A stretch of 64,000 bases of DNA from Candidatus Nomurabacteria bacterium RIFCSPLOWO2_01_FULL_42_17 (GTDB lineage: Bacteria > Patescibacteriota > Minisyncoccia > Phycocordibacterales > UBA9973). Under the pieces are notes generated by a model. It searched no databases and was not told the DNA's origin. It was given only the letters and a program-made list of their open reading frames with translations. Below are positions 9,575 through 10,738 of this stretch, one piece after another. How positions within the stretch are numbered: the stretch's first letter is position 1; each line of letters opens with the position of its first letter. The translations under genes were made by a program, and so were the position numbers. The stretch is from positions 112,533 to 176,532 of the forward strand of contig MFVE01000005.1 in NCBI GenBank assembly GCA_001785985.1, read 5' to 3'.

Positions 9575-10738
9575 TCAAATCAAGTTGACTTCTGGGATAA
9601 GTTTAAGGTCAAATTTATTTTTTACATCAGCGATGATCATCTGCGCTAAATTTTTTATCTCCTCGCCCTCTGCTCCGCCGTAATTTACCAAGACTAGGGC
9701 TTGCTTATCGTGCACGCCGACGTTGCCGAGTCTTTTGCCCTTCCATCCACACTGCTCGATCAGCCAGCCAGCCGGAATTTTGACCGCTCCGCCCTTGCCC
9801 GCCAAAGCAGGAGCGTCGGAGGGCTCATCGAAATACGGCATGTCGGGATACGTTTCCTGCAACTTCTTCAATTCCGTCGGAGATACGAAAACATTCTTGA
9901 AAAAACTTCCGGCATTTGGGATTACGGCCGGATCCGGCAGTTTGGTTCGGCGGATATGCGAAACCGCATCGCTGATATCCTTGGAATTTTTTATTTCAAT
10001 TTTATTCCCGCCTGCAACGCTATGCCTGCCCGAATCGCTACGCGAATCGTTGCGGACGGGCGTAGCATTGCGGGCAGGTTTTTCTAAATATTCAGCAAGA
10101 ATTTTATAAGAGAGATTTGGTTTTGGAATTTTGCTTAATTTGAGAGTGATCGCAGTAATAAAATATTTATCTTTTAATTTATTTTTAAAAACGCTTTCTC
10201 GATAGCCAAATCCGCATTCTTCTTTGCTAAAAATTCTCTTCTTATTCTCTTTACCCGTGTCGACATCAAAAGCTTCGACATTGACGAGCACCTGCTCTAA
10301 CTCCGCGCCATATGCCCCAATATTCTGCATCGGCGCAGCGCCGACAGTGCCGGGGATAAGCGCTAAATTCTCGATGCCCCAGAGTCCGCGCCCGACCGCG
10401 AAGGTCACGAGGTCGTGCCAGATCTCTCCGCCCATCGCGCGAATATAAACAAAATCTTTCCCGACGCTTTCGGTCGGGACCCCGACCCTTTGGGGCGTCG
10501 GGGCTTTTAAAATCTCGATCCCTTTCAATTTATTTAAAATCACCAAACCATCAAAATCTTTGGTAAACAAAACATTACTCCCTCCACCCAGAAAAAGTTT
10601 TTTGTTATTTTTGAATTCCGAAGCATCAAAAATCTCTCTCAAATCATTTTCCGTGTGAATTTCTACAAAAAATTTTGCCGTGGCAGAGATGCCAAAGGTA
10701 TTTAGTTTAGATAAATTATAGTTTTGCTGTATGTTCAT
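9575..10738 (-). CDS. murB: UDP-N-acetylenolpyruvoylglucosamine reductase MurB, longer than usual (387 aa) because of two in-frame GC-rich insertions
   Basis: FAD-binding N-terminus (KLFLGGGSNVLFTKDFDGLVI), the substrate-domain motif LALIPGTVGAAPMQNIGAYG and C-terminus ...EQCGWKGKRLGNVGVHDKQALVLVNYGGAEG. Confidence 0.85.
   Translation of the reverse strand: MNIQQNYNLSKLNTFGISATAKFFVEIHTENDLREIFDASEFKNNKKLFLGGGSNVLFTKDFDGLVILNKLKGIEILKAPTPQRVGVPTESVGKDFVYIRAMGGEIWHDLVTFAVGRGLWGIENLALIPGTVGAAPMQNIGAYGAELEQVLVNVEAFDVDTGKENKKRIFSKEECGFGYRESVFKNKLKDKYFITAITLKLSKIPKPNLSYKILAEYLEKPARNATPVRNDSRSDSGRHSVAGGNKIEIKNSKDISDAVSHIRRTKLPDPAVIPNAGSFFKNVFVSPTELKKLQETYPDMPYFDEPSDAPALAGKGGAVKIPAGWLIEQCGWKGKRLGNVGVHDKQALVLVNYGGAEGEEIKNLAQMIIADVKNKFDLKLIPEVNLI
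10007..10078. repeat. Family-A GC-rich imperfect palindromic element, long copy, in frame inside murB
   Basis: CCCGCCTGCAACGCTATGC[36-bp internal segment]GTAGCATTGCGGGCAGG flanked by T-runs. A 37-bp short copy is at 14775-14811 in rluA. Confidence 0.7.
10461..10501. repeat. Second GC-rich nested palindrome inside murB
   Basis: CCGACGC...GGTCGGG-ac-CCCGACC...GCGTCGG. It encodes an extra PTPQRVGVPTESV segment relative to other MurB sequences. Confidence 0.5.

Follow-up and report, generated by a model that had tools for sequence, protein, structure and literature searches.

The stretch of DNA analysed here, referred to as the window, comprises 64,000 nucleotides of Candidatus Nomurabacteria bacterium RIFCSPLOWO2_01_FULL_42_17 (GCA_001785985.1, contig MFVE01000005.1, positions 112,533 to 176,532) and carries a short GC-rich palindromic repeat, here called Family A, within the reading frames of two unrelated genes. 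One of them is murB, the product of which contains the Pfam domains FAD_binding_4 and MurB_C, and the other encodes an RluA-family pseudouridine synthase. Both genes have housekeeping neighbours in the window (SIMPL, Sua5/YrdC, DUF1003, VKOR, L19 and several tRNAs). The genes and the repeat units that they contain are the following:

9575..10738, minus strand: murB (UDP-N-acetylenolpyruvoylglucosamine reductase), 387 amino acids, compared with a basal ortholog length of 337
10007..10078, minus strand: composite 72-nt element in murB, read as an outer Family-A unit with a nested second unit; the sense strand encodes PARNATPVRNDSRSDSGRHSVAGG
10007..10024, minus strand: one 18-nt half of the outer Family-A unit, which joined to 10061-10078 gives a 36-mer identical to the rluA copy
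10025..10060, plus strand: nested inner unit of 36 nt, CCTGCCCGAATCGCTACGCGAATCGTTGCGGACGGG, found with a conserved-foot regular expression; a diverged member in the orientation opposite to the outer unit
10061..10078, minus strand: the other 18-nt half of the outer Family-A unit
14215..14901, minus strand: RluA-family pseudouridine synthase gene, 228 amino acids, compared with a basal ortholog length of 216
14776..14811, minus strand: simple 36-nt Family-A unit in the RluA-family gene, equal to the cross-genome consensus, with PARNATHSVAGG between K and E

An earlier reading of this DNA, made without database searches (the sequence-only reading), had described a GC-rich imperfect palindrome of 72 bp in the murB frame, flanked by T-runs, and the sequence at 10007-10078 bears this out: on the plus strand it is CCCGCCTGCAACGCTATGC-CTGCCCGAATCGCTACGCGAATCGTTGCGGACGGGC-GTAGCATTGCGGGCAGG, with a GC content of 67%, T-runs on its flanks and the encoded peptide KPARNATPVRNDSRSDSGRHSVAGGNK. 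The same reading had reported a shorter copy in the rluA gene, 37 bp in length, with a difference of one base and a missing internal segment of 36 bp. A shorter copy is present, encoding KPARNATHSVAGG, but its unit is 36 nt long (CCCGCCTGCAACGCTATGCGTAGCATTGCGGGCAGG on the plus strand at 14776-14811), base 14775 being part of the flank, and instead of differing by one base it matches the outer 18+18 nt of the murB element at 36/36 positions. On the sense strand, the 36-nt imperfect palindrome common to both sites is CCTGCCCGCAATGCTACGCATAGCGTTGCAGGCGGG. The supposedly missing segment is better regarded as an addition in murB, the 72-nt copy being a 36-nt unit whose centre holds another, diverged member of the family. 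The position of this inner unit has an ambiguity of 2 nt, between the palindrome centre and the loop edge.

Chance is excluded as the source of the repeat in the window by the count of the 19-nt arm, which occurs exactly twice compared with 0 occurrences in 100 dinucleotide shuffles, by a scoring scan of the 64 kb for GC-rich palindromes, in which both sites rank strongest, and by the folding of the elements, both strands of which fold better than shuffles, with z-scores of -3.5 to -5.5. A folding check had been proposed together with the sequence-only reading, and its outcome agrees with it. A strict scan for palindromes with perfect feet misses Family A owing to conserved mismatches in the element, and neither the scoring scan nor a conserved-foot scan found further Family-A copies in the 64-kb window.

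The comparison with orthologs, the other check that had been proposed, shows that both copies are insertions relative to MurB and RluA orthologs, seamless and of a length that is a multiple of three nucleotides (3n). Out of 120 MurB orthologs, 29 are filled at exactly the element site and 91 are empty, and the filled ones carry hairpin DNA of the same superfamily rather than the same peptide on unrelated DNA. Ortholog DNA for murB was obtained protein by protein, and a locus scan based on the MurB alignment covered at least six close relatives. The empty murB site reads GA(G/T)AAA^AA(C/T)AAA (L125, L127, L129), the empty rluA site reads AGCAAA^GAAAAAACA (L214), and the boundaries of the murB insert derived from ortholog DNA are GAAAAA^CCTGCC...GGCGGG^AATAAA. 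The inserts in the window are exactly 36 or 72 nt long, run from CCTGCC to GGCGGG in the sense direction and leave zero bases duplicated with respect to the empty sites; no target-site duplication was found in the comparisons of filled and empty murB and rluA orthologs. At the protein level, an alignment of MurB with solved structures shows an insertion of 22 residues that is absent from the Pseudomonas chain, and the element segment of the RluA-family protein falls within a gap-rich loop of solved RluD/RluA-family structures. In a MurB model of moderate quality from AlphaFold (AF2), with a mean predicted local distance difference test (pLDDT) score of 65, residues 221-244, which correspond to the element, as well as 81-92 and 310-316, which correspond to other inserted islands, are predicted to lack secondary structure, with pLDDT <50.

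Outside the window, a degenerate pattern of the arm was scanned in one genome per species and matched at least 120 stretches. Among the matches listed, approximately 50 stretches are accounted for by an unrelated conserved Rhodobacterales gene and other single-arm chance matches, while the full element is present in at least 70 (of 124 stretches retrieved), in unrelated genes and between genes and in both orientations. The motif is therefore not confined to two sites, and together with the state of the murB orthologs this supports the proposal of the sequence-only reading that the repeat is a selfish, palindromic, in-frame mini-element similar to the Rickettsia palindromic elements (RPEs). The listed matches comprise 83 copies of the element in 70 stretches and the window, 62 of which are exactly 36 nt long. 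Within these 62, 19 are identical to CCTGCCCGCAATGCTACGCATAGCGTTGCAGGCGGG and 27 differ from it by 1 base, and the four imperfect positions of the palindrome are also conserved across copies; these conservation figures are inflated, as one arm had to match the scan pattern.

The carriers that belong to the candidate phyla radiation (CPR) are Nomura-, Moran-, Roizman-, Davies-, Collier-, Falkow- and Yonathbacteria, Saccharibacteria, Microgenomates and Kazan, and those outside it are metagenome-assembled genomes (MAGs) of Verrucomicrobia, Kiritimatiellia and Lentisphaerae. A few low-GC carrier MAGs are labelled Gammaproteobacteria or Bdellovibrionales, and these labels are treated with caution. 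The GC content of the carrier loci ranges from 0.29 to 0.62, and some MAGs have at least three to four Family-A loci each among the matches listed. The family therefore crosses phylum boundaries, which, like the nested double insertion of the long copy, goes beyond what the sequence-only reading had seen. In one side observation, L037 (labelled Gammaproteobacteria, GC 0.42) and L062 (Roizmanbacteria) have the element within mutually similar flanks, apparently at the same site, which suggests that the site is orthologous and that some taxonomic labels of low-GC third-party annotation (TPA) assemblies are unreliable. The consensus core was not found in IMG/VR, one contig of which (L002) contains diverged copies, and searches of PLSDB plasmids and INPHARED phages with the 36-mer found nothing. 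In Rfam there are sub-threshold chance matches only (CRISPR-DR20, 15.9 bits compared with a gathering score of 42), and an exact match to the 12-residue PARNATHSVAGG in the protein database has an E-value of approximately 580.

In low-GC loci of the CPR type, about half of the copies lie within long open reading frames (ORFs). The hosts identified by Pfam are DNA polymerase I (polA), the CCA-adding enzyme, ArgRS (argS), GluRS (gltX), a Mur ligase, ThiI, RseP, GAPDH (gap), UvrA and TrmD, and inspection by eye adds the ribosomal proteins S2, S9 and S11, where the copies are close to the N-termini. All the clearly internal copies are 3n long (36, 69, 72, 105 and 108 nt), and all but one (in TrmD, PVCNAMRSIAGR) are in frame a0 and in one orientation and encode PARNATHSVAGG or a peptide close to it. 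Of the six frames of the unit, four are stop-free and the other two have a stop codon. Variants of 37, 38 and 44 nt (eleven copies) are intergenic, upstream of start codons or at the end of a gene, and one such non-3n variant at a gene end supplies the stop codon. Since the orientations of the intergenic copies between co-oriented genes are split 4:6, the intragenic frame bias points to a survival filter on the encoded peptide and not to an insertion bias. This reading-frame filter and the exclusion of non-3n variants from gene bodies imply that the intragenic copies are translated and not removed. In high-GC loci of the Planctomycetes-Verrucomicrobia-Chlamydiae (PVC) superphylum, most copies are found within the first 10-30 codons of stop-to-stop ORFs, and these copies are probably upstream of genes, like the classical repetitive extragenic palindromes (REPs).

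With regard to structure, the minimum-free-energy fold obtained with RNA parameters is a fully symmetric hairpin. Folding with DNA parameters moves the minimum by four bases, to a free 5' CCTG followed by CCCGC-AA-TGC-T-ACGC-ATA-GCGT-T-GCA-G-GCGGG. The two registers were compared on 39 distinct 36-nt copies with 500 shuffles. For the symmetric register, 88.5% of the cells are paired (88.5% when shuffled) and the covariation is 0.069 (0.067 when shuffled), a value reached by 181/500 shuffles; for the shifted register, 95.1% of the cells are paired (93.2% when shuffled) and the covariation is 0.113 (0.073 when shuffled), reached by 0/500. The double changes in the shifted register affect pairs 7-34 and 16-26, the latter with four changes from A-T to T-A and one to G-C, and the 16T/26A subfamily (peptide ...SHSD...) would have two mismatches if the register were symmetric. 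The covariation across copies favours a unit made of a 4-nt CCTG tail and a 12-bp bulged hairpin.

Nested copies appear to follow the same structure, as their insertion points coincide with paired/unpaired junctions of the shifted hairpin, including the loop edge. Different inner units are found at the same internal position in the window, L055, L068, L076, L108, L115, L117 and L121, whereas in L042 and L110 the nested copy lies beside the TT internal loop of the outer unit, and in L011 and L070 beside its T bulge. Moreover, many copies in PVC genomes are located at the centre of unrelated palindromes. The base at position -1 of the flank is A in 44/83 copies and T in 4/83, and the base at +1 is C or G in 59/83, a modest asymmetry that is present in low- and high-GC genomes alike. 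The possibility that the 36-mer is a tail-to-tail REP dimer was rejected, given that each 17-18-nt half is without a stem-loop of its own, and a likeness to E. coli 4.5S RNA (CCCGCAACGCTAC) was discarded, being short and attributable to chance.

The inserts found in orthologs show that different subfamilies have repeatedly hit the sites in murB and rluA. On a rough neighbour-joining tree of 337 conserved columns, the filled and empty states of the murB site require at least 18 changes, with a large scatter. The inserts at this site include the Family-A variants PARNASHSDAGG and PARNAAYSVAGR, 18-nt feet (PARRGG = CCTGCCCGCCGTGGCGGG) and other apices on the same foot (PARPTGAVQSGG and PARTTVPSQNDFVGLESGG). 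In the murB of L209, an 18-nt hairpin lies 1 base upstream of the element site, in another frame, with the peptide NLSAQAG, and a second site, twelve codons upstream, holds a consensus copy in two MurB orthologs (L213). In rluA, a different subfamily occupies the identical nucleotide position in one further ortholog, of 68% identity (L212). Furthermore, uvrA is occupied at the same VGG^KNI position in two unrelated MAGs, L075 and L091. In the former (L075:365-3672, a MAG labelled Bdellovibrionales, GC 0.40), uvrA has spacer-less head-to-tail arrays of the 36-mer at two sites, partly masked as N, and a 33-nt variant at a third; in the latter (L091:2468-5617, Moraniibacteriota), the VGG^KNI copy has a 72-nt AT-rich insertion in its loop.

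The window murB also has two further GC-rich insert islands, one at 10459-10506 (KAPTPQRVGVPTESVGK, with the core hairpin GGTCGGGACCCCGACC) and one at 9791-9823 (SDAPALAGKGGAV), both of which are variably occupied across orthologs. In relatives, PASPRRGG..TSGTSWKG marks a fourth variable site, at which the window gene has no insert. With these four variable sites, the MurB of this clade has at least four hot spots for hairpin insertion. In the RluA ortholog alignment, a second hypervariable insertion site lies at columns ~195-255, between ...KRF and FTYLE, where some relatives have up to ~55 extra residues (for instance QNFSGSSLPRVRGGSHTNKNF) and the window protein is empty.

Among the systems described so far, Family A is closest to the REPs, which are short tagged hairpins thought to be mobilised by the REP-associated tyrosine transposases (RAYTs) of the Y1/HUH type. 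REPs number from tens to thousands in a genome, and a RAYT gene typically has REPs on its flanks. REPs with GTAG or CGTC tags are sometimes intragenic and in frame, notably in uvrA, polA, recB, tRNA synthetase and pseudouridine synthase genes, and the verrucomicrobium Opitutus terrae has the largest number of these, for instance GTAG-17/18/19 (Di Nocera et al. 2013, PMC3733652). Both intragenic REPs and Family A are imperfect hairpins of 20-40 nt with a conserved 4-nt single-stranded end, dispersed without target duplication, often inside palindromes, single or arrayed, with a fraction in frame in housekeeping genes, and both occur in the PVC superphylum. However, the tag of Family A is CCTG instead of GTAG or CGTC, its ends are CCTG.../...CGGG with GTAG/ATAG at the palindrome centre, and its peptide is unrelated to the REP-encoded peptides listed for O. 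terrae (PMC3733652). Moreover, REPs are species-specific, whereas Family A has the same sequence in different phyla, and a RAYT for it was not found in the sampled DNA; also in contrast with intragenic REPs, about half of the sampled Family-A copies in CPR genomes are intragenic.

The RPEs (Ogata et al. 2000, 2002, as cited in PMC10969869 and PMC3733652) are likewise selfish palindromic repeats; they lie in frame in a large number of unrelated essential genes, in a genome that is small and AT-rich, are translated as additional segments at the protein surface and fall into several families with genic and intergenic members. The RPE-1 type is ~100-150 bp long, encodes 30-50 residues and is found in Rickettsia only, whereas Family A has 36 nt and 12 residues and occurs in CPR and PVC genomes. 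RPE-4 and RPE-6, which have been classed as CGTC REPs (PMC3733652), have a tag that is absent from Family A, and the host of the window copies is Candidatus Nomurabacteria, not Rickettsia. The IS200/IS605 elements and the palindrome-associated transposable elements (PATEs) share with Family A seamless integration, bulged imperfect hairpins with an adjacent 4-nt segment and a preference for single-stranded or hairpin targets, which for Family A is suggested by the nested insertions. They differ in having a conserved target of 4-5 nt and left and right hairpins, as opposed to a preference for A at -1 and a single hairpin, and no TnpA was found for Family A in the window or the loci. The mitochondrial GC clusters or coding palindromes of Nematomorpha (PMC6649704) are also GC-rich in-frame hairpins in AT-rich genomes, but they belong to another genetic system and are much longer, with no evidence of a shared family or of spread across lineages. 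Two other candidates were rejected: a miniature inverted-repeat transposable element derived from a DDE transposon, given the lack of a target-site duplication and a unit of 36 nt compared with 70-300 bp, and a CRISPR/TIGR-type array, given that the copies are solitary or form spacer-less head-to-tail tandems inside uvrA.

The sequence-only reading had been unaware of any such element in this lineage. This holds for CPR/Patescibacteria, for which no account of this sequence or of such elements was found in the literature, but in-frame intragenic REPs outside Rickettsia were already known (PMC3733652). Family A is a new family of REP/RPE-like intragenic palindromes, the first noted for CPR as far as the literature was searched. 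It is real and inserted, repeated in unrelated genes and genomes, seamless, nested in murB and filtered for frame, and it is probably a miniature mobile element, selfish and non-autonomous, similar in kind to REPs and RPEs. The unit is 36 nt long, with the conserved 4-nt CCTG tail (in the sense direction in both window genes) and a 32-nt imperfect hairpin. Under the mechanism proposed for its mobilisation, it would move in a folded, single-stranded form and be acted on in trans by an enzyme, with an HUH/Y1 (RAYT-like) nuclease as the foremost candidate in view of the analogy to REPs. Copies insert seamlessly in either orientation and without target-site duplication, as the comparison with empty sites shows for the window copies. 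Other hairpins are frequent targets, including the unpaired junctions of resident family members, leading to nested copies such as the 72-nt murB element. With a length of 3n and four frames free of stops, copies that insert in protein surface loops can survive, and selection keeps almost only the orientation and frame that give the hydrophilic PARNATHSVAGG, translated as an extra disordered loop, in line with the observed frame filter. The near-identity across phyla may reflect tight constraints on recognition, recent horizontal spread or both.

Several points weigh against this interpretation. When the window and all the loci (~1.5 Mb in total) were translated in six frames and searched with a RAYT/TIRYT profile built from a published alignment, there was no match at E<=10; this sample, 64 kb of the source genome and 8 kb around the other copies, is too small to exclude an enzyme elsewhere. 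In the same DNA, tblastn with IS608 TnpA and E. coli RAYT queries found none, and the protein families recurring beside the copies in an all-vs-all BLASTP of the ORFs of 70 loci are housekeeping only. The terminal GTAG/CGTC tag of described REPs is absent from Family A, no target motif of several bases was detected in 83 copies, the only preferences being A at -1 and C/G at +1, which is unlike IS200/IS605, and identical copies across phyla are hard to reconcile with the known co-evolution of REPs and RAYTs. Furthermore, the covariation comes mainly from the 16T/26A subfamily, which may represent a single event or very few events, the conservation is overstated by the way in which the copies were retrieved, and the source genome, sampled over 64 kb, shows Family A at 2 sites with three units. 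Finally, ongoing mobility is deduced from phylogenetic scatter and not from polymorphism between near-identical strains.

Other explanations were also considered. The absence of a transposase near any copy would be expected if the element were spread and homogenised without a dedicated enzyme, by host replication and repair and by natural transformation between lineages, through quasi-palindrome template switching, microhomology copy-choice via the CCYGCCCG/CGGGCRGG feet or ligation of a self-folded strand into a nick. The hairpins at the murB site, which share the foot and differ in the apex (18 to 72 nt), fit an exchange or deletion of the apex at a resident hairpin; the outer unit of the window murB is 36/36 consensus though the site is occupied in several relatives, which suggests replacement or conversion, and the tandem arrays in L075 and L116 fit slippage. 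Nevertheless, naive sites in dozens of unrelated genes, exact 36-nt boundaries and an unpaired CCTG tail are unlike template switching, the imperfections conserved across phyla argue for the copying of a specifically recognised master sequence and recombination between phyla would require flanking homology, so that a purely host-driven origin seems rather unlikely. Membership in the true REP/REPIN-RAYT system, with an unrecognised type of tag and a vertically inherited RAYT maintaining the element in each host, would account well for the architecture (a 4-nt conserved tail and a 32-nt imperfect bulged hairpin), for the lack of target-site duplication and for copies inside other palindromes and head-to-tail arrays, as in REPs (PMC3733652). 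Intragenic REPs are documented in the same kinds of gene (uvrA, polA, tRNA synthetase and pseudouridine synthase genes), in greatest abundance in Opitutus terrae, and Family A is common in Verrucomicrobia and Kiritimatiellia too, where it is mostly intergenic. We nonetheless give this explanation little credence, as GTAG is found at the palindrome centre only and not as a terminal tag, REPs are normally species-specific through co-evolution with their RAYT and this 36-mer is the same across phyla, and the sampled DNA, too small a sample to exclude a RAYT, contained none. Small CPR genomes are not known to carry RAYTs, which also counts against it.

A module selected by the host, be it an mRNA hairpin acting on translation or stability, an antisense terminator, a protein-binding DNA site or a peptide motif such as an N-A-T/N-A-S sequon, would explain the strong conservation of every position across phyla, the T-runs that follow both window copies on the plus strand (antisense to both genes) and the N-A-T within the a0 peptide. 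It is very improbable, however, in view of copies in both orientations, genic and intergenic, at non-homologous positions and absent from most orthologs, of intergenic copies without following T-runs, of the loss of the sequon in several subfamilies (PARNAAYSVAGR) and of the lack of matching Rfam families. A stable GC-rich hairpin in AT-rich coding sequence superficially resembles a translational bypass, like the mitochondrial byp elements, but the idea that the segment remains untranslated, as a mini-intron, a bypassed stretch or an intein-like element, was rejected as hardly credible: removal would free both length and frame, yet the intragenic copies are always 3n and stop-free, nearly all in one frame, with non-3n variants excluded from gene bodies, and twelve residues are far below the size of an intein. 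Lastly, the carriers are all MAGs and none was found in curated plasmid and phage collections, as would be the case for an assembly chimera, a technical sequence or a contamination. Such an artefact is scarcely conceivable given that the assemblies come from many independent projects, with flanks that fit the composition of each genome, that insertion is in frame at codon boundaries of intact conserved genes and that diverged subfamilies and nested forms exist.

Beyond the mobile element of the REP/RPE kind that we prefer, a bolder proposal can be put forward tentatively, and we regard it as doubtful: Family A and its sister CPR hairpins would form a new class of ultra-compact single-strand hairpin transposon, with a CCTG tag of its own, moved by a new enzyme or a near-universal host activity across Patescibacteria-Verrucomicrobiota, with seamless insertion and excision at preferred sites. 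If true, this class would be a continuing source of surface-loop insertions in essential proteins of reduced genomes. Unexplained short insertions are frequent in CPR/Patescibacteria proteins, and the results on Family A show that at least part of them are mobile hairpin DNA read through by the ribosome, and not lineage-specific protein evolution. This has consequences for gene calling and structure prediction in these genomes, as well as for alignments and phylogenies. A nearly invariant 36-nt element across phyla with 29-62% GC is unusual among REP-like repeats, and with Family A both the mode of movement of such elements and their possible passage between phyla become testable. The recurrent sites in murB, rluA and uvrA provide natural filled/empty pairs for the study of insertion and excision.

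Other features of the window were also observed. A different family of GC-rich hairpin (CCCGCCTACGCCGAGGCTTCGGCGGG), encoding 11 residues, is found at 5437-5462 inside a 346-codon ORF on the plus strand, with looser relatives at 49483-49514, 52394-52432 and 53405-53445. Directly upstream of rluA, a 224-amino-acid ORF (14917-15591, minus strand) without a Pfam match has an N-terminal segment similar to a helix-turn-helix, and its motif ILYLGEGGK may be related to that of LAGLIDADG endonucleases. In two orthologous loci (L212, L214), the gene found there is a different one. Four AT-rich direct repeats of 50-90 nt, with a spacing of ~3 kb (19328-19377, 22198-22296, 25401-25499 and 29009-29107), each end in ...TATGTTATACT followed by ATGCC(C/T)GA(A/G)GGAGATAAAA, as if the promoter and 5' end of a set of paralogous genes had been repeated. 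A perfect AT-rich inverted repeat of 23 nt with a 4-nt loop (15826-15875), directly after a tRNA-Val/tRNA-Arg pair, is probably a terminator.

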